48,224 nucleotides of DNA from Candidatus Saccharimonadales bacterium (GTDB lineage Bacteria; Patescibacteriota; Microgenomatia; Curtissbacterales; GWA2-41-24): the NCBI GenBank assembly GCA_035480415.1, contig DATIHT010000015.1, forward strand, positions 1 to 48,224, written 5' to 3'. Shown here one piece after another: positions 6,124 through 47,715 of this stretch. A program made the translations under genes and the position numbers. Each line of letters opens with the position of its first letter. Position 1 is the first letter of the stretch. The notes below the pieces were generated by a model. That model saw only the letters and a program-made list of their open reading frames with translations, did not search any database and was not told the origin of the DNA.

Positions 6124-7035
6124 TTACTTTAGTTTTCTTCTTACCTTGTAGTAGATTTTTCTTTTTGGATTCTGGCTCATTAAACTTTCAAATATCCAAT
6201 ACCTTATGTCTTTTGCTGCTCTTTGTAATTCTACAATTACTTCCACGAGAAAATTGTCCGGAGTCATATCTCTAAACTTTTCTTTTTTCTCCCAAACCTT
6301 AGCGAAGAAAACTAAAGCATAAAATGCCTGAAACAAAGACAGGACAAGACCATGCATACCATCTAAAAATCCTTTTTCAAAAAAGAAGGTTTTTACAAAA
6401 TCGTTGGCCGGCCATCTTATTGCATCAAACCAATAGATTTGCTTTCCGGCGTTCATAAAATTTTCTGCTTCTGATTCCGTATAAGTTCGGTTTAGTTTGT
6501 TGATAAATTGTGAGACTGTTTGATAGTTGTAGTGGATCATTGGGTTCTCCAGCTTATCAACTTCCCCAATTACATCAAGCTTTTCATGAACATGTTTTTG
6601 TGCAAATTTTCCTTTTCCTTTTCTGAATAGACGAAGGTTGTAATCCGGCCACCAAATTGAATGCTGGATCCATTTGCCAAAGATTATGTTTTTTCTGGGG
6701 ATGTCATATCCGTTTATAGTAGATCGACTATTGCTAATAGTTTTTTTTATTTCGGCTGAAAGTTCTGGTGTTAATCTTTCGTCTGCATCAAGGGAGACTA
6801 ACCAGTCTCCGGTAGCTTTCGAAAAGCCAAAGTTTTTATTTATATTTAGGTTCACAGGATTATTTTCTCTTGTGAATACTTTTTTGGTATATTTTTTGGC
6901 GATTTGTTCTGTCTTGTCGGTTGAGCTGTTGTTAACAACAATAATTTCATCTGCTGTGCCCTTTACCGATCTGAGGCAATCTTCGAGCATAGCTTCTTCG
7001 TTATATGCGGAAATTACAACGCTTAGTTTTTGCAT
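6124..7035 (-). CDS. Glycosyltransferase family 2 (paralog of 3676..4458)
   Basis: LSVVISAYNEE...IIVVNNSSTDKT...SLDADERL plus WWPDYNLRLFRKG. The architecture matches 3676..4458. Its stop abuts the PPIase stop (tag/tta at 6121-6126). Confidence 0.8.
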   Translation of the reverse strand: MQKLSVVISAYNEEAMLEDCLRSVKGTADEIIVVNNSSTDKTEQIAKKYTKKVFTRENNPVNLNINKNFGFSKATGDWLVSLDADERLTPELSAEIKKTISNSRSTINGYDIPRKNIIFGKWIQHSIWWPDYNLRLFRKGKGKFAQKHVHEKLDVIGEVDKLENPMIHYNYQTVSQFINKLNRTYTESEAENFMNAGKQIYWFDAIRWPANDFVKTFFFEKGFLDGMHGLVLSLFQAFYALVFFAKVWEKKEKFRDMTPDNFLVEVIVELQRAAKDIRYWIFESLMSQNPKRKIYYKVRRKLK

Positions 7036-14373: not shown

Positions 14374-15696
14374 TTAAAAGATTTCCCCGAGGCCGTCTTC
14401 TATTGAACTGTCATTCTGACTTTTTGATGTGTGAGTCTCAATAGACTCAATCGGGAAGATTATTTTATTTGTTCCAAATACATTCCATACATCACAAACG
14501 ATACAGTTTTTGGCAACTAATTTGCTTAACTTTTTTATATCCATTTTTTTGTAGAAGTTGTGATTGGTTGCCACAAATACAAGTTCCGCACCTTTTAATG
14601 TCTCGTTTAGATCGTTTTGATAAGCTGGAATGTACGGGTCGTGTAAAAATACTTTCGCTCTCTCTCGCTCTAGTGCTTTTTTAACTTTGAAAGCAAGTGA
14701 TTCTCGAACATCATCAATTTCTGCTTTGAACGCCATACCCAGAACAACAGACTTTTTGCCTTGCAGTTTCATTTTTTCTCTGACTTTTTTGATCAAAAAA
14801 AGCGGAATTGATTCATTTAACTTCCAGCTAGTTGTAATTAAATCTGAAAAAGGTACATCCCCTACCAAGAAGAAACCGTCTTTAAAAAGACATGGTCCAC
14901 CGGTTAAACCTGGCATTGCGAGCCCTCCTCTTTTGTAGTTTTTGTTAACGAGATCGACTACCTGGTAGATATCTCTGTGGTAGTTGCCTGCAAGAATCAT
15001 GAATTCGTTGGCAATTGCGAAGTTAATATATCTATACATATTGGTGAATAGTTTTGCGAGTTCTGCCGATGTTGAATCTGAAACATTTACTTCAATGCCC
15101 ATTGATTTGAAGAATGTGGCAGCCTTTTGTGCACTGTTTCTTTCTGATCCGCCAACTATTTGAGGTAGAAACTCAAGTTCAGTAAGTGACTTGCCTTCTG
15201 AGATTCTTTCTGGGCAAAAAGCCAGGTAGAAATTTTCTCCTATTTTAAATCCTTCCTCTTCTAGGTAAGACTTAACGTACTGCGTTGTTCCGGGAGATAC
15301 GGTTGATCTTAGAATTAGAAGTTGGCCTTTTTTCATATGCGGCCTGGCAACTGCTAGTGCTCTGTCTATTTGGACCAGAGATGGATTCATATTCTCATCA
15401 ACTGGGGTTCCAAGGGTTAGGATGATTACGTTTGATTTTGCGATATTTGAAAAATCTGTGGTTGCGACGAAACTCTTGTTTACGTGCTTTTCGAGCATTG
15501 CCTGGGCGCCTTCTTCCATAAAGGGCATGACTTTTTTGCTTATTATGTCTATTTTTGCCTGATCAACGTCCAGACCGTAAACGAAGTAGCCTTTTTCGGC
15601 CAAGAAGAGCGCCAGAGGTAAACCTACTCTGCCAATACCAACAACGCTGACTGTGCCTTTTACATTTTTCCCCGTGCTTTTTGGTCCTGAAGCCAT
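14374..15696 (-). CDS. Nucleotide-sugar dehydrogenase (UDP-glucose/GDP-mannose dehydrogenase family; WecC/TviB-like)
   Basis: N-terminal Rossmann VSVVGIGRVGLPLALFLAEKG and catalytic-Cys motif GGPCLFKD. A strong AAGGAGG SD lies 6 nt upstream of ATG 15696, inside the end of the upstream gene (37-nt overlap). Confidence 0.8.
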   Translation of the reverse strand: MASGPKSTGKNVKGTVSVVGIGRVGLPLALFLAEKGYFVYGLDVDQAKIDIISKKVMPFMEEGAQAMLEKHVNKSFVATTDFSNIAKSNVIILTLGTPVDENMNPSLVQIDRALAVARPHMKKGQLLILRSTVSPGTTQYVKSYLEEEGFKIGENFYLAFCPERISEGKSLTELEFLPQIVGGSERNSAQKAATFFKSMGIEVNVSDSTSAELAKLFTNMYRYINFAIANEFMILAGNYHRDIYQVVDLVNKNYKRGGLAMPGLTGGPCLFKDGFFLVGDVPFSDLITTSWKLNESIPLFLIKKVREKMKLQGKKSVVLGMAFKAEIDDVRESLAFKVKKALERERAKVFLHDPYIPAYQNDLNETLKGAELVFVATNHNFYKKMDIKKLSKLVAKNCIVCDVWNVFGTNKIIFPIESIETHTSKSQNDSSIEDGLGEIF

Positions 15697-16658
15697 TGAA
15701 CAACCTCCTTTAGCCCATCTTCAAATTTAACTTTTTGTTCCCAGTTAATTAGTTTTTTCATTTTTGAAATATTTGGAACTCTTCTTCTGATATCGTATTG
15801 GAATCCTTTGACGTATTTAACTTTGAATGGTTTGTCTACTTCCATTATTTCCCAAATCTTTTTGGCAAGATCGATCATTTTAATTTCAACATCTGATCCA
15901 ACATTAAAATCTTCGTTTTGGGCATTTTTATGAAGAGCTACTGTAATTACTCCATCTGCAATATCTTTTACGTGAGTGAAACATCGTGTTTGCTGACCAT
16001 CTCCAAGAAGTTCAAGTGGATATTGACCGGTCATTATTTTCCTGACTAAATCTGGAATAACGTGGGCATAACCAACCTCCCTTTCCGGGAATTCGTTAAT
16101 TCCGTAAGCATTAAATGGTCTGCAAATTGAAAACGGAAGCTTGTACTGATCCCAGAAAGAATGGCAGTACCACTCTCCGGACAACTTTGAGAACCCGTAT
16201 GCTGATATTGGTGGTGGTATTTTTATAATGTCTTCTTCTTTTGACGGGAATGTCGTTGCCGATTCAAAAACCATTGATGAGGAAATGTACACCATTCTTT
16301 TAATTTTTGCCTTTACCGCCGCTTCAAAGGTGCAGCTGTATATTTTGTTGTTTTCCGAAAGTATTGTTGCCGGGAATTTGTGAAAGTAACCAATGCCGCC
16401 GATTTTTGCAGCGGCATTTATACAAATGTCGATTCCCTGGAAAGCTTTTTCCGCTTCCTGGTGATTAGTTAGATCAAGTTTTAGAAATTCTACTCTACTG
16501 TCTACAGATGCATCTTTTTTGGAGAGATTGTCTGCGACCCGGACTGGATATCCTTTATTTAGAAGTTGTCTCACCATCTCGGAACCGATAAATCCGGCGC
16601 CTCCTGTTACGAGAAACTTTAATTTAGAATTGTTTGTTTTTGATGAATTAGCCGTCAT
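15660..16658 (-). CDS. NAD-dependent nucleotide-sugar epimerase/dehydratase (extended SDR)
   Basis: FLVTGGAGFIGSEMV Rossmann motif and YGFSK catalytic YxxxK. Paired with the downstream dehydrogenase, as in TviB/TviC- or WbpO/WbpP-type pairs (inference). Confidence 0.8.
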   Translation of the reverse strand: MTANSSKTNNSKLKFLVTGGAGFIGSEMVRQLLNKGYPVRVADNLSKKDASVDSRVEFLKLDLTNHQEAEKAFQGIDICINAAAKIGGIGYFHKFPATILSENNKIYSCTFEAAVKAKIKRMVYISSSMVFESATTFPSKEEDIIKIPPPISAYGFSKLSGEWYCHSFWDQYKLPFSICRPFNAYGINEFPEREVGYAHVIPDLVRKIMTGQYPLELLGDGQQTRCFTHVKDIADGVITVALHKNAQNEDFNVGSDVEIKMIDLAKKIWEIMEVDKPFKVKYVKGFQYDIRRRVPNISKMKKLINWEQKVKFEDGLKEVVQWLQDQKARGKM

Positions 16659-16666
16659 TAATTGAT

Positions 16667-16776
16667 TACTCCGTTTTGCGCTTCTTTCGCTATTATGGGC
16701 ATTTATTAAAGCCCATAACGGCTACAGAAGACTAGAATCCAGCTCCGCCTGTTACTAAGAATTTTGTTTTCGCCAT
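16667..16776 (-). promoter_or_regulatory. Conserved leader element, copy A: mini-ORF MAKTKFLVTGGAGF-stop, a 20-bp imperfect hairpin and a GGAG SD
   Basis: Mini-ORF 16776->16732. Hairpin 16730->16681 (16 Watson-Crick pairs plus 1 G-U out of 20). GGAG at 16672-16669, 10 nt before ATG 16658. About 80% identical to 32674..32763. Confidence 0.6.
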
Positions 16777-18347: not shown

Positions 18348-20761
18348 TATTTGGTTTTTTGTTTTTTGGCAGTATAGACTCCCAAGATAATTAGCATGAC
18401 TAATGAGGCCATAGTGATATGAACACCGGTTTTAAATGACTTGGACTGATAATAGAACTCAACTGTGTGCTCCCCTTTTGGTACTGCAGCTGATAGAAAC
18501 GCATAGTGTGCTCTAAGTAATGGTGTCGTTTGTCCGTCAATTTTTACATGCCAGTTGGGATCATGGGCATCTGATACGAAAAGAAGAGAGTTTTGATCCA
18601 GTTTTGTTTTGATTATTATTTCTCCAGGAGAATACTTTATGATTTCGGGCTCTACTGCTGACTGGTCGGAACTTTGAATATCTAGTGGCGGCTGGGACTC
18701 AAGAAGAAGAGTTCTTAGGTCGAATTGTGGGTCATAAATCTTGTTTATAATCTCCTCGTCTGATGCTACAAGATAACGGGTAGTTTGGAAAATTCTTGGG
18801 ATGACTGTTTCTCTTTGGAAAACTTGAAATTTGTCTTGCTGCCAGATGCCCTTAACTTTATCGTTTGAAAATCTTTCATAGTGAAAATCTGCAGCATTTT
18901 TAGGACTGTCTTCTTTGTCCAGAAGATATTTAACTCCCAGCAAGTCAAAGAGTCTTTTCCTGAAACCGTTTTCTTCTGTCGGAAAAACACCGTCTGACCT
19001 TAGATATGTTTTTGGGACTTTACCTGTTGCTGCCGACGCCAACAACTGTGAATACCTTTCGATTCTCAAAGTGTCGTATCCTTCTGCTCCATATACCTTG
19101 TAATGAGTTGGGAAATTAAAATCAATATGAGCTGTTCCCCCTCCATAGAATCTATTGATACCAGCGTTATCTTGAAGCCAAGAAAATATAGGGTGATCCG
19201 GAAAGATAAAACTCTTGGGTGAGGTTGGTAGGAATTTATTGGTGTAATAAACACCACCAAGCATTGTGATTGCAAAAATACCATAAATAAATGCTTGCTT
19301 CAGGTTGATTGGAAGTTTAAGTGATTTTGGTTTTAACAGCACTATCAAGCTTCCTGCAAAAAGAGATAGGTAGCTAAATGTTGGTAAGATAAGATTTCTT
19401 TTGGTTACGGATAGATTGACCTCCCAAACGTCTTTGGGAGACATGAATTTTGCTCCTACTTGCGCAAAGGCCCACATTAAAAAATAAATAAATCCAATAC
19501 CTATCTGGAAATAAATAAATTTCTTTAGATATTTCTTGTCATCGAAGTTTTTTAATATATCGGCAAGACTGAGCGACGAAAGTATTATCAGCAAGAATAT
19601 TGAGATTGATATAAACCTTGATGGGGTAGTTGCATCAATTAGGGGAATCTGAAAAGCTCTGATTGCCCAGGTTATCGGGCCGTTTACTGCTGCAAATATA
19701 AAGAGAACAGACACGAGAGTGAGAAATTTAACAAATTTTTCCTTCCATAAATTGAAAATGCCCCACAAGCTTAGAATCAGCGGGATCACACCAAAGTACG
19801 GAGTAAAGTCGCCGTATGAATGACTCCAGAAGTTATTGTTTGCAGGGTGACCAAAAAAATCGCTTGCAAAAAAAGTGATTAAGTTTTTGTAAGGAAGAAT
19901 GCCCCAATCAAATACTTCTCTTGAAAATGGTAGCGATATTGGTGAAATTTTATAGAACTGAAAGGTAGGAATAATCTGGACTGCTGACACGAGCAGTGAT
20001 GCTAAAAATACAAAAATAATTGCACCAAATTTTGGAACAAGCAACTTTTTTTCACTCAATACCTTAAAGATCCAGTACAATCCCACTGCGCTGTATACGT
20101 ATATAGCCGTTTGAGGATGGCCGGCAAGAATGGATAGGGCGAGACTTGCGGTTAATATTAATAAATAGTTAAACTTTGAATTTTGAAAGTAATTATTTAT
20201 TGACCAGAATGCCAGAGGTAGCCAAACATAGCTATGAGAAACGTTTCCATTCTCCATCCATGTGATTAAGTAGCTGGAAAACATAAAGGCAATAGACCCA
20301 AAAATAGAAGGCCATTTCTCCAGCTTGTAGCTTTTTAAAAGCAGATACATAAACAGTCCGCCCAGGAGAGGTTGAATCATCACTAGTAGAAGCCACGCGT
20401 TTTTTGCATTCGTTAAAAAGTAAAAAATATTAAACGGATAGAAGACGCTCGACTGGAAATTGGCAAGAAGAGGCTGGCCAGAGAATGTGTAAGGATTCCA
20501 AAGAGGCGCCTTGCCTTGCTTAAACTCATCTGCTGCAAATTCTTTCCAAAGGTATATTTGCCTGATGCTGTCTGCGCCCAATAGCTCTTTGTGTGTCGTC
20601 CAGGGACTATATCCTTCCCAGCCACCTGAGTAATAAGGAAAGTAAAATGAGGTCAGTAAATCTCCTGGAATTGGATACTGACCTCTTAGGAAAACCTTAA
20701 AAAAGATCAGACAAGTTACAAGAAAAATAAATATGACTGCGAATAGTTTGCCTTTAATCAT
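18347..20761 (-). CDS. YfhO-family polytopic membrane glycosyltransferase (GT-C-like)
   Basis: The track starts at GTG 20821. ATG 20761 (MIKGKLFAVIFIF...) aligns with the N-terminus of the paralog at 1867. C-terminal WHVKIDGQTTP...VPKGEHTVEFYY plus a terminal TM is typical of YfhO. Confidence 0.75.
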   Translation of the reverse strand: MIKGKLFAVIFIFLVTCLIFFKVFLRGQYPIPGDLLTSFYFPYYSGGWEGYSPWTTHKELLGADSIRQIYLWKEFAADEFKQGKAPLWNPYTFSGQPLLANFQSSVFYPFNIFYFLTNAKNAWLLLVMIQPLLGGLFMYLLLKSYKLEKWPSIFGSIAFMFSSYLITWMENGNVSHSYVWLPLAFWSINNYFQNSKFNYLLILTASLALSILAGHPQTAIYVYSAVGLYWIFKVLSEKKLLVPKFGAIIFVFLASLLVSAVQIIPTFQFYKISPISLPFSREVFDWGILPYKNLITFFASDFFGHPANNNFWSHSYGDFTPYFGVIPLILSLWGIFNLWKEKFVKFLTLVSVLFIFAAVNGPITWAIRAFQIPLIDATTPSRFISISIFLLIILSSLSLADILKNFDDKKYLKKFIYFQIGIGFIYFLMWAFAQVGAKFMSPKDVWEVNLSVTKRNLILPTFSYLSLFAGSLIVLLKPKSLKLPINLKQAFIYGIFAITMLGGVYYTNKFLPTSPKSFIFPDHPIFSWLQDNAGINRFYGGGTAHIDFNFPTHYKVYGAEGYDTLRIERYSQLLASAATGKVPKTYLRSDGVFPTEENGFRKRLFDLLGVKYLLDKEDSPKNAADFHYERFSNDKVKGIWQQDKFQVFQRETVIPRIFQTTRYLVASDEEIINKIYDPQFDLRTLLLESQPPLDIQSSDQSAVEPEIIKYSPGEIIIKTKLDQNSLLFVSDAHDPNWHVKIDGQTTPLLRAHYAFLSAAVPKGEHTVEFYYQSKSFKTGVHITMASLVMLIILGVYTAKKQKTK

Positions 20762-28449: not shown

Positions 28450-29406
28450 TTATTTCTGCAATTTTTTTCGCTCGTATTCAATTGTATCAGAAAGTGTAAC
28501 TTCCAGAGGTATTGAAGGTTGCCAGCCTGTTTTCTTTTGAAACTTTGAAAAGTCACACGAAATTTTTTTAATATCTACAGGTCTTAGAAGGCTTTTATCG
28601 ATCTCAACTTTTATTTTAACCTTTGAATGCGACAAAAGTTTATCCAATACATCTTTTATTCTGACGCTTTTTCCAGAACCTAAATTATATACTTCACCAA
28701 ACTCACCTTTGTCGAGGGCGAGCAAGTAAGCTTTTACTATATCTCTAACGTCTGTGAAATCACGATATGTTTCCAGATTTCCTACTTTCAAGGTTCCTCC
28801 ACCATTTTTCTCGAGTTGTGCTATTTGAGATGCAAACGCCGGAACAACAAAAACCGGTGCCTGGGCAGGACCAATGTGATTGAACGGTCTTACTCTGACA
28901 ATTTTCATTTTTTTGTGGAGAAAAAATTGAAGTCCGAGCATATCCTGGGTTACTTTTGAAACGGCATAAGGTGAGTTAGGTGCAAGGGGTGTTTCTTCGC
29001 CAACGGGCAAATACTTCTCGTCAATGTTCCCATACTCGTCTGCGGAACCAACTACTAATATCCTTGCGTCGATATCGTTTTTTGCAATTGATTCGAGGAT
29101 GCTCAACTGGCAGAGGATATTGTTTTGAAGGGTAGATGCAGGGTCTATAAAACTCTGAGCAGGTGATGAAAAAGCCGCTAGATGAAAAACGTAATCCGGC
29201 TTTATTTTTTTTATTTCGCTCTCTACTTTTTTTGCGTCTAAAACATCGCAAGCCACCAGGTTAATTCTGTCTTTTATAGAATCGAGGTTATCTGTAGGAT
29301 GATCGGGATGATAAAACCCGTAAATATCAATGTTTTTCTCAAGAAGGTATTTTGTTAAGTGGGAACCTGCAAAACCAGCAATACCTGTAATGAGTGCCTT
29401 TTTCAT
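28450..29406 (-). CDS. GDP-4-keto-6-deoxy-D-mannose reductase-like SDR (Rmd-like; GDP-D-rhamnose branch)
   Basis: ALITGIAGFAGSHL, SPYAVSK, FNHIGPAQ and KVGNLETYRDFTDVRDIV resemble Rmd-type reductases as I remember them. Immediately downstream of gmd. Confidence 0.55.
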   Translation of the reverse strand: MKKALITGIAGFAGSHLTKYLLEKNIDIYGFYHPDHPTDNLDSIKDRINLVACDVLDAKKVESEIKKIKPDYVFHLAAFSSPAQSFIDPASTLQNNILCQLSILESIAKNDIDARILVVGSADEYGNIDEKYLPVGEETPLAPNSPYAVSKVTQDMLGLQFFLHKKMKIVRVRPFNHIGPAQAPVFVVPAFASQIAQLEKNGGGTLKVGNLETYRDFTDVRDIVKAYLLALDKGEFGEVYNLGSGKSVRIKDVLDKLLSHSKVKIKVEIDKSLLRPVDIKKISCDFSKFQKKTGWQPSIPLEVTLSDTIEYERKKLQK

Positions 29407-30707
29407 CTTCCAACACCAAAGTATTTGAAACCAAGGTCGATGGCTTTTTGTTTATCAAGAGCGTTCCTGCCGTCGATAATGATTGGATTTTTAAGAAGTT
29501 TCTTTACGGTTTGGAGGTCTAAGTTTTTAAACTGTGGCCACTCAGTTATCAAAATCAAAGCATCTTTATCTTTTAGGGTTGTTTCGACGTCTTTGCCAAA
29601 TTCTATTCCTTTAATTACTTTATTTGCGCTTTCCATGGCTTCGGGATCATAGGCTGTTACTTCTGCTCCCAACTCCAATAGATGGCTTATGATCCTGACA
29701 GAAGGAGCATCCCTCATATCATCAGTGTTTGGTTTGAACGCGAGTCCAAGAATGGCAAGTTTCTTGCCTTTTAAGCTTTTACCATCCTGTTCCCTACCAT
29801 CCAGGGCTGTTCTTATTTTATTAACAAATCTTTCCGACTGAGATTTATTTATGGCGTCAACTGAACTTAAGAGATCGAAAGAATAATCAAAATGAGTTGC
29901 GATGGAGATAAACGCTGTTACGTCTTTGGGGAGACAGGATCCTCCGTATCCAACTCCTGGATAAAGAAATGACCTACCAATTCTTTTGTCCGCGCCAACT
30001 CCCGCCATTACTTTTTCGACATCAGCACCCATTTGTTCGCACAGTATGCTGACCGCGTTGGCAAAAGAAATTTTGGTGGCGAGAATAGAATTGGCACAAT
30101 ATTTAATCATTTGAGCACTTCTCATATCACAAATTATTCGCTCTCCTGGCATTGGGGCATGCAGTTCAAGAAGCATTTTTTGTGCCTTTTTACTATTTGT
30201 TCCGATAACTATTCTGTCAGGATGAAGCGTGTCTTCAATTGCGGTTCCTTCTCTCAAAAATTCCGGACACGATGCGAATTCAAATGTTGACTTGGCATGT
30301 TTTTTGGCAAGTTGTTCGAGATCGTCTTCAAATCCTATTGGAATTGTGCTTTTGATTGCAAGAAGAGTGTATTTTGATATATTCTTGGCGGCTTCTTCTA
30401 CTGCTGAGAAAAGATAGGTAAGATCTGCTTCACCTGTTGGCTTTGGTGGAGTACCGACGCAAATTAAAACTATTTGGGATTTTGGTACTGATTCTTTGTA
30501 ACTAGTGGTAAAGAAAAGTCGTTTTTGTTTTTGGTTTCTTTGAATGTAATCAGAGAGAGACGGTTCAAAAAAAGGTATTTTGCCTTTTTTTAAATCTTCA
30601 ATTTTTTCTGGAATGACATCTACACAGTAGACTTTGTTTCCGAGTTCACTGAAAACTGCTGCTGTTACTAATCCTACGTATCCTGCTCCTATTATGGTTA
30701 TTTTCAT
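29403..30707 (-). CDS. ugd: UDP-glucose 6-dehydrogenase
   Basis: MKITIIGAGYVGLVTAAVFSELGN and the catalytic GGSCLPKD. 434 aa. Confidence 0.85.
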   Translation of the reverse strand: MKITIIGAGYVGLVTAAVFSELGNKVYCVDVIPEKIEDLKKGKIPFFEPSLSDYIQRNQKQKRLFFTTSYKESVPKSQIVLICVGTPPKPTGEADLTYLFSAVEEAAKNISKYTLLAIKSTIPIGFEDDLEQLAKKHAKSTFEFASCPEFLREGTAIEDTLHPDRIVIGTNSKKAQKMLLELHAPMPGERIICDMRSAQMIKYCANSILATKISFANAVSILCEQMGADVEKVMAGVGADKRIGRSFLYPGVGYGGSCLPKDVTAFISIATHFDYSFDLLSSVDAINKSQSERFVNKIRTALDGREQDGKSLKGKKLAILGLAFKPNTDDMRDAPSVRIISHLLELGAEVTAYDPEAMESANKVIKGIEFGKDVETTLKDKDALILITEWPQFKNLDLQTVKKLLKNPIIIDGRNALDKQKAIDLGFKYFGVGR

Positions 30708-31620: not shown

Positions 31621-32634
31621 TTATTTTTGTTTATATTGTTTTTTGTAATATTTATCAAAATCGTTATTTTTTAATTTCTTCCACCAGTCTGTATTTTGTT
31701 TGTACCAGTTAACAGTTTCTTCGAGTCCGCTATCCAAATTGTATTTTTCCCTCCAGCCAAGTTCATTTTTTATCTTGCTTGCATTAATTGCATAGCGCCT
31801 ATCGTGTGCGGGTCTGTCATCGACGTACTGGATCATATCTTCCGACATTCCAAGTAGCTTAAGAATTTTTTTAATTACTTCTATATTAGGTATGGCACTA
31901 TCAACTCCCACACAATATGTTTCTCCTACCTTGCCTTTTTCGAGTACTAACTCAATTGCGCTTGAATGGTCGTCTACATATAACCAATCTCTCGTGTGGC
32001 GGCCATCTCCGTATACGGGAACTTTTTTACCTTCAAGTAGGTTTGTTATTGCCAGAGAAATCAATTTTTCAGGATACTGATACGGGCCAAAATTATTGGA
32101 ACAGTTAGTAATTGTTATTGGCAGGCCATAGGTTTTGGCGTACGCTCTTACCAAATGGTCTGATGATGCTTTTGATGCAGCATATGGGCTGGTCGGTTCA
32201 TACTTTGTATCCTCGTTAAAAACCTCTTGTGAATCTAGGGGTAGGGCTCCAAATACTTCATCTGTTGAGATGTGGTGAAATCTTTTTACTTTTGCCTTAA
32301 GAGCAGCATCAAGCAGTACCTGTGTGCCAAGAACGTTTGTTGTCACAAATGGTGCCGGATCAAGAATGGATCTATCAACGTGTGATTCTGCTGCAAAATT
32401 AACAACTACATCGACCCCCCCTAGTGCTTTTCCAATTGCCTTCGGATTACCTATATCGCCTTTTATAAATTTGTAGTTGGGGTTTCCTTCCACGTCTTTC
32501 AGACTTTCAAGATTACCAGCGTAAGTAAGCTTATCAAAGTTAATTACTTTATCTTCTGGGTGATTTTTAAGCCAATAATGAATAAAATTGGAGCCGATAA
32601 ATCCGGCGCCGCCTGTTATTAGTATGTTACTCAT
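31621..32634 (-). CDS. rfbB: dTDP-glucose 4,6-dehydratase
   Basis: ILITGGAGFIGSNFIHYWL...VINFDKLTYAGNLESL...STDEVFG...SPYAASKASSDHLV are classic RmlB motifs. Confidence 0.9.
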   Translation of the reverse strand: MSNILITGGAGFIGSNFIHYWLKNHPEDKVINFDKLTYAGNLESLKDVEGNPNYKFIKGDIGNPKAIGKALGGVDVVVNFAAESHVDRSILDPAPFVTTNVLGTQVLLDAALKAKVKRFHHISTDEVFGALPLDSQEVFNEDTKYEPTSPYAASKASSDHLVRAYAKTYGLPITITNCSNNFGPYQYPEKLISLAITNLLEGKKVPVYGDGRHTRDWLYVDDHSSAIELVLEKGKVGETYCVGVDSAIPNIEVIKKILKLLGMSEDMIQYVDDRPAHDRRYAINASKIKNELGWREKYNLDSGLEETVNWYKQNTDWWKKLKNNDFDKYYKKQYKQK

Positions 32635-32775
32635 GAATTGTTTGACTTTTGATTAAATGTATCATATTTTAGCTACTCCGTTTTGCGCTTCTTTCGCTTT
32701 TTATAGGCATTTTGAAAAAGCCCATAAAGGCTACAGAAGTTAAAATCCGGCTCCGCCTGTTACAAGAAGCTGCAT
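32627..32775 (-). promoter_or_regulatory. Conserved leader element, copy B: mini-ORF MQLLVTGGAGF-stop, hairpin, GGAG, and a second uORF overlapping the rfbB start
   Basis: Mini-ORF 32775->32740 starts 1 nt after the rfbA stop. Hairpin 32739->32688. GGAG 32679-32676. uORF2 (MIHLIKSQTIHE, 32665->32627) begins 10 nt after the GGAG and ends in ATGAGTAA across the rfbB ATG. Confidence 0.6.
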
Positions 32776-35161: not shown

Positions 35162-37349
35162 TTTTTCTCCTCATTTTTATACCAACTATGATCATCGCCG
35201 TTCCGAAAATGAGAACTAGCGCTGCGAGTATTGTCCATATTGTTGATGCGCCTGTTCCCGGCAGACTCGTTGATGCACCGAGAACTTGACTTGTTGATGC
35301 GCCTAACACATTGTTTTGAATATTCACGGAAGCGCTATTCTGACTACTCGTGACAACATTTGCTTCAGTTCCCACAAAGTTTGTGTCCAAAACACCTGGC
35401 GCTACTGCCTGTGCCAGAACAGTCGATGAATCCGGGGCTGTTCCCTGTCCCCATGCCACATCTTTGTAAAGACCAGGTTGTTGGTTGGCGTTTACAGATG
35501 CAAGAAGAGTCAAAACTACGACATCTCCGACATTCAACCCACCAAGTGACCAAGTTCCTGGCGATGCATATGTTGGTTCGGAAACAGGGAAGTCACTTCC
35601 ATTTTTTGTTGCTGACCAAGAACCGGATTGATATTTAATTCCTTCTGGAAGAAGATCAACTACCTTTACGTCTGTTGCTGAATTGTCTTCAACGGTTAAG
35701 GTGATTGTGTAGGTAATAGCATCCCCTGGCGCAACTGTTGTTCCCAGCTTATTGTTGGTTTTGGAAATGGTAATTTCGGGTGCGATATGACGGTTTCCAA
35801 AATTAATATTATCCACAGATGTTTCATTTTCCCCAAATGTTACTTGATGACACAAAACACCATCCTGAACGTTTTTGGGATAGGTTTGTTCCCATCCATC
35901 TTGCATGACTTCGCAAATAGTATATGTGCCTGGATTAATAACTAAGGTGTAATTACCATTTTCATCTGTTGTTGCTGACGGTTCTCCCTGATCAAATTCT
36001 CCATTTTGGTTAAGGTCGACAAATATTGTCCAATTGGCAAGACCAGCTTCACAAATGAAGGGTAAATCGCCAACGACTGGGATGTCGTCAAGAGAGATGT
36101 GTGTCAGTGGGATTTCAAAGTCTGATATACACCTTTGGCCATTACCGTTTACGTCGTTCCATTTATATCCATTGACAGTACCTTTTTGTTTATTTGTGCA
36201 AGTAACAGTTACAGTGTCTCCGCTGTCTAGTGTCACTTGTTCTCCTGACTCTACCGGAGTACCGACGCTTTCGTTGTCGTATTGAGCAGTACAGCCGTCA
36301 AATGAATAGTTGTTGCTGCCTAAAACTTCATTAACGTTGTATGTTCCGGGATCGACTGTGATTGGGTCTGTAGATTGGCCATCGGTTAGCGAAAACGAAC
36401 CGCCACTAATAATCTCTTCACTTTGGCGAATATTAAAATCGAACTGTGTACTTGTATCCTCAACATCACCTCCGGTTGGATTGACTACTTCTTTTGTAAC
36501 TACTATGTGCGCTTTTTGATAATTACCAAAATCGGCAGTGTAAGACCCGGCTTCTGTAATTACTACGGTTTGGCAGTTTGTTTTTGGCTGACTTACGTTC
36601 CAACCATCTTGTTGGACTTCACAGATTGTATAGGTTCCTGGTGATAGGTTGGTAAATGAATAACCGTTTCCACTTGTAATAGTTGATGTTTCACCTTGGT
36701 CTAAAGTACCGTTACCATTTGAGTCTATAAAAATAGTCCAACCGGAAAGATTTTCTTCGCCATCATTTTTTTCACCGTTGGCATTTTCATCTAAAAACTT
36801 GACACCTGTTATCGTGCTTCCACTATTGCCGCCCCTTGGACTCGGCGACGCTGAAGGAGAATTGCTTGGATTATTAGAAGGTGAAGGATTGGGGCTTGGA
36901 ATGTTGCATTGATTATTCCAAATATCCTGTCCTTCCGGCCAATTTAAGCCTGGATAATTGAAATCCCCACTAATGTAGGGCGGAATAATATCTCCCCAAT
37001 TGTCGGCAGGGTATAGAGGCCCCGTATGGTTTAGGTGGCCACCAGTTAGTGATCCGTCATTTTTAATGTTTGGAGATTCCTGAACATACGGATTTGAATT
37101 TGAAGCGGTTGCGTGACAAATTGTTACTGAATCTGAGTCTGGTGATGGACTCACAGATGGCGATGGGGAACTCGGATTGTCGGATGGTGAAGGACTTTCA
37201 CTCGGTTGGTCTGAAGGTGATGGGCTGGGTGCAGCTTGTGCTAACACCTTTCCAGCCGGAGCCAGAAGTTGAAATACCATTAGAAAACAAGCCAGGATGG
37301 GCAAAAAGTTTTTTGGCATGCGCGTTAAAAACCGCGTTTTAATTTTCAT
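35154..37349 (-). CDS. LPXTG-anchored adhesin-like surface protein (Cys/His N-module, SdrD-B-like repeats, DUF11-like domain)
   Basis: LPGTG (35264->35250), a hydrophobic stretch and an RRK tail. Two repeats carry D-x-N-x-NG-x-x-D-x-GE calcium loops and GTYTICEV(Q/M)QDGW (SdrD B-like). ITYTITLTVEDNSATDVKVVDLLPEG is DUF11-like. Ser/Pro-rich linkers. ATG 37349. Confidence 0.8.
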   Translation of the reverse strand: MKIKTRFLTRMPKNFLPILACFLMVFQLLAPAGKVLAQAAPSPSPSDQPSESPSPSDNPSSPSPSVSPSPDSDSVTICHATASNSNPYVQESPNIKNDGSLTGGHLNHTGPLYPADNWGDIIPPYISGDFNYPGLNWPEGQDIWNNQCNIPSPNPSPSNNPSNSPSASPSPRGGNSGSTITGVKFLDENANGEKNDGEENLSGWTIFIDSNGNGTLDQGETSTITSGNGYSFTNLSPGTYTICEVQQDGWNVSQPKTNCQTVVITEAGSYTADFGNYQKAHIVVTKEVVNPTGGDVEDTSTQFDFNIRQSEEIISGGSFSLTDGQSTDPITVDPGTYNVNEVLGSNNYSFDGCTAQYDNESVGTPVESGEQVTLDSGDTVTVTCTNKQKGTVNGYKWNDVNGNGQRCISDFEIPLTHISLDDIPVVGDLPFICEAGLANWTIFVDLNQNGEFDQGEPSATTDENGNYTLVINPGTYTICEVMQDGWEQTYPKNVQDGVLCHQVTFGENETSVDNINFGNRHIAPEITISKTNNKLGTTVAPGDAITYTITLTVEDNSATDVKVVDLLPEGIKYQSGSWSATKNGSDFPVSEPTYASPGTWSLGGLNVGDVVVLTLLASVNANQQPGLYKDVAWGQGTAPDSSTVLAQAVAPGVLDTNFVGTEANVVTSSQNSASVNIQNNVLGASTSQVLGASTSLPGTGASTIWTILAALVLIFGTAMIIVGIKMRRKNV

Positions 37350-39545: not shown

Positions 39546-40168
39546 AAACCAGCGAGTATTGATCCGGAACCGATTAAGAAGTAAAGCGCAGAATCAGCAA
39601 CACCTGTTGCTCCCAGTACCTGTGGCGTCGGCTGGCTAGTATTGTTTGAGCTTCCACCTTCCGGGTGACAGTTTACGCTGCAACCAGAACTACCTCCACC
39701 GATTGCAGGAGGTGTTGAATCTGGTGTTGGTGATGGCGAAACAGAAGGGCTTGGAGACACTGACGGTGATGGGCTAACTCTTGGGCTTGGAGACACTGAC
39801 GGTGATGGGCTTGGCGAAGGTGCGCCTGGAATATTACAATTATTAGCTAATATAGCTTGGCCTTGGGGCCAATTCATACCAGGATAAACGAAGGCTCCAT
39901 TGGTGTAGGGAGGAATTATATCTCCCCAATTTGCAGCTGGAAATAAAGGTCCGGTGTGGTTTAAGTGGCCACCAGCTAGCGATCCGTCGTTTTGAATGTT
40001 TGGCGACTCTATTGTATATGGATTCGAGTTTGAGCTGGTAGCATGACAGATTGTGACTGATGGTGGCGGGGTTGCAAGCACTGACGATTTGAGGCCCAGA
40101 ACAGCAGAAAATACCAGGAATAGTCCTGTTAAGATGGGCAGGAAGAATTTGAAGTTCTTCCAATTCAT
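39503..40168 (-). CDS. Small surface protein: signal peptide, Cys/His N-module, (SPSPSV)n linker and an LGATG-type C-terminal tail
   Basis: The N-module VTICHATSSNSNPY...GGHLNHTG...NNCNIP is paralogous to residues 76-152 of the LPXTG protein. The C-terminus reads QVLGATG (39616->39602), then hydrophobic, then RKNKRA. Confidence 0.75.
   Translation of the reverse strand: MNWKNFKFFLPILTGLFLVFSAVLGLKSSVLATPPPSVTICHATSSNSNPYTIESPNIQNDGSLAGGHLNHTGPLFPAANWGDIIPPYTNGAFVYPGMNWPQGQAILANNCNIPGAPSPSPSPSVSPSPRVSPSPSVSPSPSVSPSPTPDSTPPAIGGGSSGCSVNCHPEGGSSNNTSQPTPQVLGATGVADSALYFLIGSGSILAGLWQAQSALRKNKRA
39747..39811. repeat. 36-nt-period tandem duplication (29 nt perfect) in the Ser/Pro linker coding region
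   Basis: gggcttggagacactgacggtgatgggct occurs at 39747-39775 and again at 39783-39811. Confidence 0.9.
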
Positions 40169-46791: not shown

Positions 46792-47715
46792 TCAGTGTTT
46801 CTGATTTGAACTTTTATAGTAACTAATTGTTCGTTTGAGTCCTTCTTTTAAATCTATCTTTGCCTTCCAGCCCACTGCTTTGTTGAGTTTTTCACTAGAT
46901 GCGTAATTTGCCGCAACGTCGCCAGGTCTTTGCCCGAGATCGTCGATTGGCACCTCGTAGCCGACAATATCAAAAATTGTTTTAATCACGTCTTTAACTT
47001 TGACCCCTTGTTCCATGCCCAGATTGAAAATATTGAAACCGTTTTGTCCTAATACGTCTATATGAGCCTGAGCTAAATCCTCGATGTAAATAAAATCCCG
47101 GGTTTGTTCTCCCTTCCAATAAAGTGGTATCGGTTTTTTGGCGAGCGTTGATGTTATGAAGTTGGGGATGGCGTGGGTCACCGGAGGGTAGAGTTTGCCT
47201 GGTCCGTACGGGTTAAAGTAGCGCAAAATAGTAACGTCCATCCCGTAGCAAGCATGAAATGATTGTAGGAATGCTTCAATTGCTGCTTTGGTTGCACCAT
47301 ATGGATTGTCCGGCCTTAGTGGTGCGTCCTCTTTAATTGGTAGCTTGTCCGGGGTTCCATATACACATGCCGAGGATGAAAAAATAATTTTATTTACTTT
47401 TGCTTCTCTCATAAAGTTTAAAAACTTTACTGTTCCAAGTACGTTATTTTCGCAATATTTTTCTGGGTTTTTTACAGACTCTGGAACGACAATTAGGCCG
47501 GCCATATGAATAACTGCATCCTGACCTTGTAGCGCTTCTTTTGCCTCTTTTTCATTGGAAATATCCCCCTCTACGAGTTTTGCTCTTTTGTCTACATTTT
47601 CTTTGTACCCATGGGAAAAATTGTCGATAACTGTAACTTCGTGTCCTGCGTCCAGAAGCATACGGACCACATGACTACCAATAAATCCGGCACCACCGGT
47701 TACCAAAACTTTCAT
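46792..47715 (-). CDS. galE: UDP-glucose 4-epimerase
   Basis: MKVLVTGGAGFIGSHVVRMLLDAGHEVTVIDNFSHG and NPYGATK (YxxxK). 307 aa. Confidence 0.8.
   Translation of the reverse strand: MKVLVTGGAGFIGSHVVRMLLDAGHEVTVIDNFSHGYKENVDKRAKLVEGDISNEKEAKEALQGQDAVIHMAGLIVVPESVKNPEKYCENNVLGTVKFLNFMREAKVNKIIFSSSACVYGTPDKLPIKEDAPLRPDNPYGATKAAIEAFLQSFHACYGMDVTILRYFNPYGPGKLYPPVTHAIPNFITSTLAKKPIPLYWKGEQTRDFIYIEDLAQAHIDVLGQNGFNIFNLGMEQGVKVKDVIKTIFDIVGYEVPIDDLGQRPGDVAANYASSEKLNKAVGWKAKIDLKEGLKRTISYYKSSNQKH

Follow-up and report, generated by a model that had tools for sequence, protein, structure and literature searches.

Two short inserts at the Rossmann-motif codons of two nucleotide-sugar dehydrogenase/reductase genes in a Curtissbacteria glycan cluster

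Why should a stretch of bacterial DNA carry, twice and 16 kb apart, a tiny open reading frame (ORF) that spells the N-terminus of a Rossmann-fold enzyme and then stops, directly in front of a gene for an enzyme of that kind? The DNA in question, 48,224 nt of contig DATIHT010000015.1 (GenBank assembly GCA_035480415.1), is called the window in the following, and the two genes encode extended short-chain dehydrogenases/reductases (SDR) acting on nucleotide sugars, referred to here as the first SDR and RmlB. A first-pass annotation made from the sequence alone had described the two upstream regions as conserved leaders and offered three explanations: an attenuator with a decoy peptide, a relic of an insertion or recombination that targets GGAGF-coding DNA, or recombination sites that bracket the segment between the copies. 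Our comparison with related loci favours the second. We propose that both genes were interrupted by an insert of 144–145 nt directly past the Phe codon of the Rossmann TGGAGF motif, that the tiny ORFs are the gene starts left behind, and that the insert brings the signals for a new start; to this core account we give a probability of roughly 85%, and translation probably begins anew within the insert.

The two repeats and the empty sites of relatives

Two homologous blocks are indeed present on the minus strand in the regions 16667-16755 (copy A) and 32674-32763 (copy B). The 25-mer AGCGAAAGAAGCGCAAAACGGAGTA and, from the 5′ arm, the 23-mer CTTCTGTAGCCKTTATGGGCTTT are both present exactly two times in the window, and 100 shuffles yielded no match to either, even with 3 mismatches allowed; the identity of about 80% reported at first was likewise borne out. 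The length of ~90 nt given for the repeats is too short. Homology extends over ~190 nt, from 16755 to 16580 in copy A and from 32763 to 32589 in copy B; it opens with one GTAACAGG..GGATTY motif, spans a leader and ends ~9 nt beyond a second motif. The 60 nt outside it on each side are 39-45% identical, which is the random level. An 82-nt core alignment of copy A with copy B contains 14 substitutions and 3 indels, and the inserts as a whole have diverged by ~20%, with indels. At such divergence the identical run of 25 nt is not significant taken alone (p ~0.1 by our own estimate).

Read on the minus strand, each block consists of a short ORF ending in ..LVTGGAGF, a stop codon (TAG or TAA), a hairpin, 25 identical nt ending in ACGGAGTA, an ATG 10 nt past GGAG, a leader of ~45 nt and a second motif, GTAACAGGnGGnGCCGGATTT, which continues through ATCGGyTCC into the real SDR gene. 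The distance between the two motifs is 145 nt in copy A and 144 nt in copy B. Identity between the copies is 19/21 in motif 1, 47/57 in the stop codon and hairpin, 13/13 in the last 13 bases of the identical block (GCAAAACGGAGTA), 7/12 in the spacer between the Shine-Dalgarno (SD) sequence and ATG, 29/47 in the leader and 20/21 in motif 2. The left junction is identical to the nucleotide in both genes (GGATTY/TA(G/A)(T)CTTCTG, with the slash at the junction). The parts of the interrupted genes are as follows.

16735..16776, minus strand: copy A, vestigial native 5′ end of the first SDR gene (MAKTKFLVTGGAGF), with a peptide identical to the N-terminus of the closest orthologues; mini-ORF from ATG (16776-16774) to TAG (16734-16732)
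16590..16734, minus strand: copy A insertion of 145 nt, from the stop codon TAG (16734-16732) to ..GGCGCCGGATTT; absent in the syntenic loci L126 and L127
15660..16589, minus strand: native remainder of the first, extended SDR (IGSEMVRQLL...); Pfam Epimerase 1.2e-53, orthologues 73-83% identical
32743..32775, minus strand: copy B, vestigial native 5′ end of rmlB (MQLLVTGGAGF), starting 1 nt past the rmlA stop codon; mini-ORF from ATG (32775-32773) to TAA (32742-32740)
32599..32742, minus strand: copy B insertion of 144 nt, from the stop codon TAA (32742-32740) to ..GGCGCCGGATTT; absent in L046
31621..32634, minus strand: rmlB, dTDP-glucose 4,6-dehydratase; Pfam GDP_Man_Dehyd 3e-81, homologues so named, from Curtissbacteria

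Both mini-ORFs, MAKTKFLVTGGAGF and MQLLVTGGAGF, each closed by a stop, exist as first described, and related genes tell what they are. For the first SDR we compared 119 listed homologues of ~325 aa that are 73-83% identical and align to 95-98% of the query. None of the 119 has the N-terminal extension of the window's protein; most of them begin with MAKTKFLVTGGAGFIGSE.., that is, with the mini-ORF peptide followed by the continuation of the gene (IGSEMVRQ..), and the closest ones begin with MAKTKFLVTGGAGF-IGSE. In L126 and L127, which share the gene order YfhO, 530-aa gene, SDR and UDP-glucose dehydrogenase (UGDH), the DNA aligns on both sides and exactly 145 nt are absent between GGxTTY and ATCGG. 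Moreover, the copy A vestige still overlaps the stop codon of the upstream 530-aa gene, just as the intact gene does in these two loci.

The same holds for rmlB. The N-termini of 119 listed homologues are short, mostly MKLLV, MKILV or MRLLV, and orthologues follow the pattern M(K/R)LLVTGGAGF-IGSNF. In L046, the nearest GTDB genome (rmlA 75% identical), the rmlA stop codon TAA is followed by a single T and ATGCGTCTTTTAGTTACCGGTGGAGCCGGATTTATCGGCTCCAATTTTATCCACTATTGG, which encodes MRLLVTGGAGF/IGSNFIHYW without interruption; the DNA at the junction reads ATGCGTCTTTTAGTTACCGGTGGAGCCGGATTT/ATCGGCTCCAATTTTATCCACTATTGG, so that MRLLVTGGAGFIGSNFIHYW begins 1 nt past rmlA with no insert. Furthermore, rmlA abuts rmlB directly in L131-L133. 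The window reads rmlA-TAA-C-ATGCAGCTTCTTGTAACAGGCGGAGCCGGATTT, then 144 nt, then ATCGGCTCCAATTTTATTCATTATTGG. Deleting 16590-16734 in silico produces an ORF of 323 aa with 83% identity to a homologue of 325 aa (P0002), and deleting 32599-32742 produces one of 336 aa with 76% identity to a homologue of equal length (P0122, 336 aa). Because the mini-ORFs equal the native N-termini and relatives have empty sites at the exact point, we conclude that they are original gene starts severed by insertion, the first 14 codons in copy A and the first 11 in copy B, left as dead mini-ORFs and closed by the first codon of the insert. They are not purpose-evolved decoys, and as leftover gene starts they need no special explanation. 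The suggestion of an insertion relic at GGAGF-coding DNA was therefore the right one.

An assembly artefact was considered and rejected, since independent assemblies show the same structure and copy A has diverged from copy B. The sequence is base-for-base identical in Logan SRR9179560 and SRR9179562 and in the NCBI metagenome-assembled genome GCA_964624995.1 at whichever copy each contig covers (the contigs L001 and L002, which cover copy B, and L128 and L129, which cover copy A, stem from the same organism and are 100% identical there).

The empty sites also bear on the idea that the copies are recombination sites which flank a 16-kb segment and make it mobile; in its favour one can cite their direct orientation, their spacing of 16 kb and their identical runs of 25 nt and less. 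Yet the gene order around copy A (..PMT_2, OTCase, GT2, .., YfhO, 530-aa gene, SDR, UGDH) is that of the insert-less L126 and L127, the order around copy B (rmlA, rmlB, .., rmlD, UGDH) is that of the insert-less L131 and L132, and each copy is fully explained locally as an insertion into one gene. We find the bracketing idea hardly credible.

The 5′ end of the first SDR gene varies elsewhere as well. Two Curtissbacteria orthologues, P0064 (L140:1501-1565, NCBI GCA_030688205.1) and P0023, have in-frame N-terminal duplications of ~15 nt (MAKTKFLGQKFLVTGGAGF and MAKTKFLKTKFLVTGGAGF), and their N-termini, duplicated at the same place, read MAKTKFLKTKFLV.. and MAKTKFLGQKFLV... Judged from these sequences, this end of the gene appears recombination-prone; the duplications may be slippage scars or may stem from imprecise loss of an insert at the same hot spot.

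Replacement start signals and a hairpin

If the native starts are dead, the enzymes need new ones, and the inserts contain the following candidates together with a hairpin.

16667..16691, minus strand: copy A, 25-nt identical block with the SD sequence GGAG (16672-16669), 10 nt before ATG
32674..32698, minus strand: copy B, the same 25-nt block with GGAG (32679-32676), 10 nt before ATG
16590..16658, minus strand: copy A, new start codon (16658-16656) and replacement N-terminus MTANSSKTNNSKLKFLVTGGAGF, in frame with the gene (ORF 15660-16658)
32627..32665, minus strand: copy B, upstream ORF (uORF) of 12 codons, MIHLIKSQTIHE followed by a stop that overlaps the rmlB start as ATGAGTAA
16681..16730, minus strand: copy A hairpin, 16 pairs, 10-nt loop; -21.9 kcal/mol, sense z = -5.1
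32688..32739, minus strand: copy B hairpin, 16 pairs, 11-nt loop; -17.1 kcal/mol, sense z = -3.3, antisense z = -1.6

The earlier statement that the element supplies the SD sequence holds insofar as GGAG stands 10 nt before an ATG in both copies; in copy B, however, this ATG opens the uORF and not rmlB. In the first SDR gene, initiation would occur directly at the ATG of the insert, adding ~9 residues (N-terminus MTANSSK..). The restarted protein would read MTANSSKTNNSKLKFLVTGGAGF-IGSE.., with an extension that is missing from the orthologues of ~325 aa. In copy B, indels have put the SD-linked ATG out of frame with rmlB. The rmlB ATG at 32634 has no SD sequence, and no other in-frame start codon lies upstream of it, so that termination-reinitiation is the likely route; the overlap of the uORF stop with the rmlB start suggests coupling of this kind. 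Ribosomes would thus reach rmlB through the 12-codon uORF and produce the N-terminus MSNILI.., and the first 12 codons of rmlB, MSNILITGGAGF (32634-32599), come from the insert. The two versions of motif 2 differ only by synonymous or conservative changes (TTT CTC GTA..GGA vs ATA CTA ATA..GGC, i.e., FLVTGGAGF vs ILITGGAGF), a pattern that fits the expectation for translated sequence. Judged from these signals, an enzyme is probably still made from each gene by fresh initiation within the insert.

The strong GGAG of the insert is unusual for this locus. TATAAT is found 6-12 nt before the ATG in several to many of the ~39 minus-strand genes (e.g., at 7035, 24683, 28436, 33532 and 38920), which suggests leaderless or very short-leader mRNAs in this genome.

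The hairpin, first described as an imperfect one of 20 bp, is real: 16 pairs form the consensus structure of both copies, and 0/200 shuffles fold as well. Instead of a single arm difference between the copies, we found three changed stem positions, which amount to one compensatory change of G-U to U-A and one change of G-C to G-U. All 16 of the 16 pairs are thereby retained despite the 14 core substitutions, an outcome seen in 0.4% of simulations with randomly placed substitutions (p ~0.004, an optimistic value, biased by deriving the structure from the same two sequences). The single G-U pair lies at a different position in each copy, and copy B folds poorly as antisense; the sense strand therefore accommodates the structure best, which lends mild support to the earlier view that it acts in the sense-strand RNA. 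A role in the mRNA is probable; the hairpin may, for instance, stabilise the transcript or insulate the new start from the dead ORF. No U-tract follows it, the predicted fold does not pair with the SD sequence and consensus scans of the element called neither terminator nor promoter; the hairpin is not a terminator. In its 3′ arm (16681-16695 / 32688-32703), ~30 nt before the SD-linked ATG, copy A has CATAAT and copy B TATAAA. This could be the -10 box of an internal promoter, in which case the 25-nt block would be the 5′ untranslated region (UTR), though the consensus scan made no call and a -35 box is not evident.

Does the pair then act as a cis-regulatory leader, in which translation of a decoy Rossmann peptide and the hairpin control the downstream genes by attenuation or coupling? 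The same hairpin and 25-nt block do precede two SDR genes, each with a UGDH-family gene downstream, and the hairpin pairs, kept through a compensatory change, favour the sense strand. The supposed decoys, however, are native N-termini, and the element is absent from the 119 + 119 listed orthologues and from L046, L126, L127 and L131-L133. It has no U-tract terminator, no alternative pairing of the SD sequence and no promoter consensus; Rfam returned no family at the gathering threshold and nothing meaningful at E<=10. The insert is therefore neither a riboswitch nor an attenuator: orthologues do without it, and it has neither a terminator nor a counterpart in Rfam. The conserved leader of the first-pass annotation is not upheld. 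We regard a regulatory leader as improbable, including its weaker version, in which a mobile insert was co-opted to co-regulate two SDR-UGDH modules.

The junctions of the insert recall yet another arrangement. In gene 60 of phage T4, ribosomes bypass a 50-nt element that has been described as part of a mobile cassette together with MobA (bioRxiv 10.1101/2022.08.31.505936). Programmed bypass of this type, or removal of the insert from the RNA, would take off at UUC/UUU and land at GGA-UUU 144-145 nt further on, restoring the native proteins with the N-termini MAKTKFLVTGGAGFIGSE.. and MQLLVTGGAGFIGSN.. in place of the MTANSSK.. and MSNILI.. predicted under restart. Take-off and landing codons match (Phe after GGA: GGA-UUC-UAG and GGA-UUU-UAA upstream, GGA-UUU-AUC downstream), a stop stands directly past the take-off codon, a stable hairpin begins 1-2 nt past the stop, an SD-like GGAG lies in the gap, and in silico removal gives a perfect native ORF. 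The insert thus resembles the gene 60 element as a short non-coding insert in a coding region with a stop codon beside a hairpin and matching boundary codons, and as proposed mobile DNA that spares its host gene. But the gap is ~3 times as long as the 50 nt of gene 60 (10.1101/2022.08.31.505936; PMC7026636), and bypass would make the insert's own SD sequence, ATG and in-frame second Rossmann motif, with its synonymous or conservative differences, pointless; the simplest way to keep the gene functional is re-initiation on a duplicated N-terminus and not hopping. Matching codon and stop features notwithstanding, a gap of three times the proper length and start signals of its own show that the insert is not a bypass element. 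Removal at the RNA level meets the further objection that the insert matches no intron family in Rfam and, at ~145 nt, is too small for a group I or group II intron; both intron types were rejected. To bypass and RNA removal alike we assign next to no likelihood.

How the inserts may have reached two genes

The restart account leaves the question of how two different genes came to be interrupted at the same codon. The insert is flanked by two copies of the ~21-nt target motif, which makes homology-guided copying the most likely route and would explain the identical junctions without a transposase. Pairing through the old motif on the left and through the motif of the insert and the IGS codons on the right, the motif-insert-motif structure could be copied into any SDR gene broken at the motif, and movement from one SDR gene to the other would most likely have occurred by ectopic gene conversion or break repair at the motif. 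A recent copy from site to site is excluded by the ~20% divergence and the indels. Two of the three TGGAGFIG-type SDR genes of the window are interrupted, at the same codon; the third, listed here, was found by a six-frame motif scan and Pfam.

46792..47715, minus strand: uninterrupted TGGAGFIG-type SDR gene, an unoccupied potential target

A possible relative of this arrangement came from a peptide search with the insert-encoded N-terminus, in which 5 candidates were scored and one hit, a 70-aa SDR fragment on a JGI contig, was obtained. The contig (L136; JGI 3300003886, Ga0063293_10000484) is Ignavibacteria-like, a neighbouring protein being named Ignavibacteria by NCBI, and its positions 141-2628 hold three copies of its own SDR 5′ end, arranged as follows.

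L136, copy 1: truncated 70-aa SDR 5′ fragment, then ~1 kb with a DUF4258 ORF
L136, copy 2: SD sequence and TTG start, AAATTTTTAGTAACCGGAGGTGCTGGTTTT (10-codon KFLVTGGAGF), breaking off 1 nt past the Phe codon
L136, GIY-YIG ORF: 104 aa, Pfam 3.5e-13, following this decoy
L136, copy 3: complete SDR gene MRFLVTGGAGFIGSN.., in ATGA overlap with the GIY-YIG stop codon

Architecture and breakpoint are those of the window, with an endonuclease gene in place of the hairpin and uORF, and by analogy this hints at homing-like, homology-guided spread. Moreover, the motif of the complete gene differs from that of the decoy by four synonymous changes (ACCGGAGGTGCTGGTTTTATTGGC for the decoy or empty type, ACTGGAGGCGCAGGGTTTATTGGC for the resident type), which would fit protection of the occupied allele from cleavage. 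A search of the ~75 other SDR motif sites among the loci collected in this analysis found no decoy (0 of ~75); phmmer with the L136 GIY-YIG protein found nothing in the window, and no relatives of it were found in IMG/VR.

On this evidence we place spread by gene conversion or a homing-like, homology-guided process at about even odds. That an endonuclease supplied in trans and cutting the motif triggered the break, so that the cassette would be an endonuclease-less relative of L136-like arrangements, is a tentative addition which we would not bet on. More doubtful still is the full picture, in which the element is a non-autonomous homing cassette of ~145 nt on the Rossmann GGAGF(IG)-coding DNA of sugar-nucleotide SDR genes, mobilised in trans by a motif-cutting endonuclease of the L136 GIY-YIG kind and made harmless by its own ribosome binding site, start codon and spare N-terminus.

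A simpler history would need no mobile cassette: two independent illegitimate recombinations could have brought in foreign SDR alleles with a conserved 5′ UTR (hairpin and SD sequence), anchored by homology in the coding region and joined at the motif. Inserts that are ~80% identical with indels look as if they came from diverged donors. In addition, the leader of insert A (SKTNNSKLKFLVTGG; AAAACAAACAATTCT) resembles the native first-SDR N-terminus (AKTKFLVTGG; AAAACAAAATTCT), in longer extracts a reworked one (..AAAACAAACAATTCT..AAAGTTTCTCGTAACAGG; SKTNNSKLKFLVT beside AAAACAAAATTCTTAGTAACAGG; AKTKFLVT), and the small N-terminal duplications in P0023 and P0064 suggest that this gene end is prone to recombination. 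Such a history, however, requires that two different genes were joined at exactly the same nucleotide on the left. No natural locus was found in which this UTR precedes an intact SDR gene, and insert B lies in rmlB, yet its leader is homologous to the first-SDR-like leader of insert A. We consider two such recombinations unlikely.

Searches for further copies and for a donor gave the following picture. An exact 20-mer of the conserved block has 0 matches in 185,579 GTDB species genomes, a search by exact words that would miss diverged copies. An 18-mer has 43 matches in the JGI metagenomes, all of them chance (extension scores of at most 26 vs 221 for the true copies), and the hairpin arm and the block have, as exact words, 0 matches and 3 chance matches in IMG/VR. 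Blastn against phage and plasmid collections returned nothing relevant, and blastn-short with both inserts against all collected loci returned nothing new. A covariance model of the two copies (R1), which the first-pass annotation had recommended, detected only these two in the window, even with filters off, and no further copy in the 10 loci from the candidate phyla radiation (CPR) and nearest relatives or in 77 other loci. The rmlB homologues that begin with MSNIL.. (L131-L133) are no donors, as rmlA abuts rmlB there and leaves no UTR, and SDR homologues with longer N-termini told nothing about a donor: upstream of the gene in L134 there are only 10 nt, and the extension in L135 is an overlap with the upstream gene.

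Several of these results weigh against our interpretation. Pfam finds no transposase, integrase, reverse transcriptase or nuclease/endonuclease in the 48-kb window, and no donor locus was found. There are only two copies and all assemblies that carry them are identical in sequence, so that they yield no polymorphism or covariation signal, and the collection scans needed exact 18-20-mers and are blind to diverged copies. The homology arms of only ~20-30 bp are short for RecA-type recombination, and two independent acquisitions from diverged sources may have taken place. L136 is a single case from a seeded search, in a different phylum, and its insert has no sequence similarity to those of the window. 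Finally, an SD-like sequence precedes only ~10 of 39 window genes, which makes the weight of GGAG in this organism uncertain.

Three further classes of element were tried and rejected. Template and variable repeats of a diversity-generating retroelement are contradicted by differences that are not adenine-specific and by the lack of a reverse transcriptase. An integron attC site is contradicted by the absence of RYYYAAC/GTTRRRY core sites (both strands inspected by eye; GTTATGG and GTTACTA do not fit) and of an integrase in the window. A tandem duplication of local upstream sequence is contradicted by the insert being unlike the 3′ end of the upstream gene.

Homologues of either SDR protein carry the name Candidatus Curtissbacteria (CPR, Microgenomates) in their sources, and the window is a long, almost wholly minus-strand cluster of cell-surface glycan genes, with glycosyltransferases, YfhO- and PMT-type membrane proteins, a flippase, rmlA/B/D, gmd, two UDP-glucose dehydrogenases, sortases and pilin-like proteins. 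Genes of the UDP-glucose/GDP-mannose dehydrogenase family lie at 14374-15696, directly after the first SDR, and at 29403-30707, after rmlB and an RmlD-like gene. Both insertions thus head two similar SDR-UGDH modules, which could matter if the insert affects expression. Two other repeats were noticed in the window. One is a direct repeat of 237 nt with 74% identity, with copies at 36894-37130, in the gene for a 732-aa SpaA/DUF11 surface protein, and at 39824-40060, in a 221-aa ORF beside the second sortase gene; these are apparently paralogous pilin or surface-protein modules of two sortase loci. The other, of 56 nt with 80% identity (1551-1606 vs 20451-20506), has one copy in the 5′ part of an 824-aa YfhO gene and the other close to the window's left edge, past which a minus-strand gene, probably a YfhO paralogue, may extend.

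Relation to known elements and meaning of the inserts

Miniature non-autonomous elements, such as miniature inverted-repeat transposable elements (MITEs) and Correia-, RPE- and REP-type elements, are small, have a palindromic core and can supply expression signals to their neighbours. The inserts share with them the small size, the palindromic core and the lack of mobility genes of their own. One may therefore ask whether they are a non-autonomous transposon, a MITE or a palindrome-associated element of the IS200/IS605 type, with a target preference for ..GGATTY and a transposase elsewhere in the genome. Both insertions are 3′ of the same short sequence, an imperfect subterminal palindrome lies near the left end, and GTAG precedes the inner stem, as in REP-type elements. 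The palindrome, however, is internal to the left half, beginning 3-5 nt from the left end and ending 90 nt before the right end, where the insert consists of SDR coding sequence, about one third of its length, that must be read in frame. The direct repeat that flanks it is the ~21-nt gene motif itself and is imperfect (17-19/21). A MITE would have terminal inverted repeats and a short target duplication of fixed length; the insert has neither and is not a MITE. By the features of IS200/IS605 elements, insertion 3′ of GGATTY fits the rule, but there is only one hairpin instead of one per end, and no TnpA or other transposase is found in the window. Moreover, only two copies were found in the 48 kb and in the collections scanned, both in SDR genes and at one codon of one protein motif. 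We judge a transposon quite unlikely.

The way in which the inserts spare their target recalls larger elements. Integrative phages and islands that enter the 3′ ends of tRNA and tmRNA genes carry a replacement for the disrupted gene end; they are kilobases long, encode an integrase and usually restore the 3′ end. Here, too, the displaced gene end is duplicated, the target remains intact and a direct repeat of the target flanks the insert. In contrast, an insert of 145 nt restores the 5′ end of a protein gene, translation signals included. To our knowledge, no insert of ~145 nt that replaces the 5′ end of a protein gene together with its translation signals, at a cofactor-binding motif, has been described.

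In behaviour, the inserts resemble selfish DNA that interrupts a gene and would keep it working. The closest parallel may be free-standing homing-endonuclease cassettes: the enzyme cleaves a conserved gene, the cassette enters as the break is repaired, and in some cases the host gene is split. Intronless examples are mobE, which splits nrdA in phage Aeh1, and mobA, which splits the T4 topoisomerase gene 39/60 (PMC2988022). Like these, the inserts have a conserved coding target, occupied and empty alleles among relatives, a host gene that would remain functional and, as proposed here, spread by break repair that copies the flanks; in L136, a GIY-YIG gene sits in exactly this SDR position. Unlike them, the inserts of the window are only 144-145 nt long and contain a 12-codon ORF as their sole internal ORF, the old gene piece is discarded and replaced by an insert-borne duplicate instead of yielding two working polypeptides, and the host is cellular, a member of the CPR, and not a phage. 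Because no endonuclease is encoded, the insert is not a member of the endonuclease-cassette family as defined. Insertions are also known from CPR rRNA genes, often with LAGLIDADG homing endonucleases, and endonuclease-driven spread has been shown for one case (PMC11270868). They occur in the same bacterial radiation, have a very conserved target sequence and include some without an ORF. Unlike those insertions, which are intron-like or removed from the RNA, the inserts of the window lie in protein-coding genes and would be handled by translation restart.

Overall, the tiny "Rossmann" ORFs do not encode a new regulatory peptide; they and the N-terminal extension are insertion scars, and loci of this kind will be described wrongly by gene callers. 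The case illustrates how an important gene can be cut by a very short piece of DNA at the codons it conserves most and yet survive, as the insert brings replacement translation signals and a replacement N-terminus. With two copies in one lineage and one analogue as its basis, this is possibly a general phenomenon. If the homing-like reading is true, the conserved cofactor-binding motifs of ordinary metabolic genes are targets of selfish DNA in cellular genomes, including the small genomes of the CPR, and endonuclease-less "mini" derivatives would exist. If, beyond this, the element is a non-autonomous homing cassette, it would relate to homing-endonuclease genes as MITEs relate to transposons and would imply an undescribed class of SDR-homing endonucleases in distant phyla (CPR and Ignavibacteria-like).

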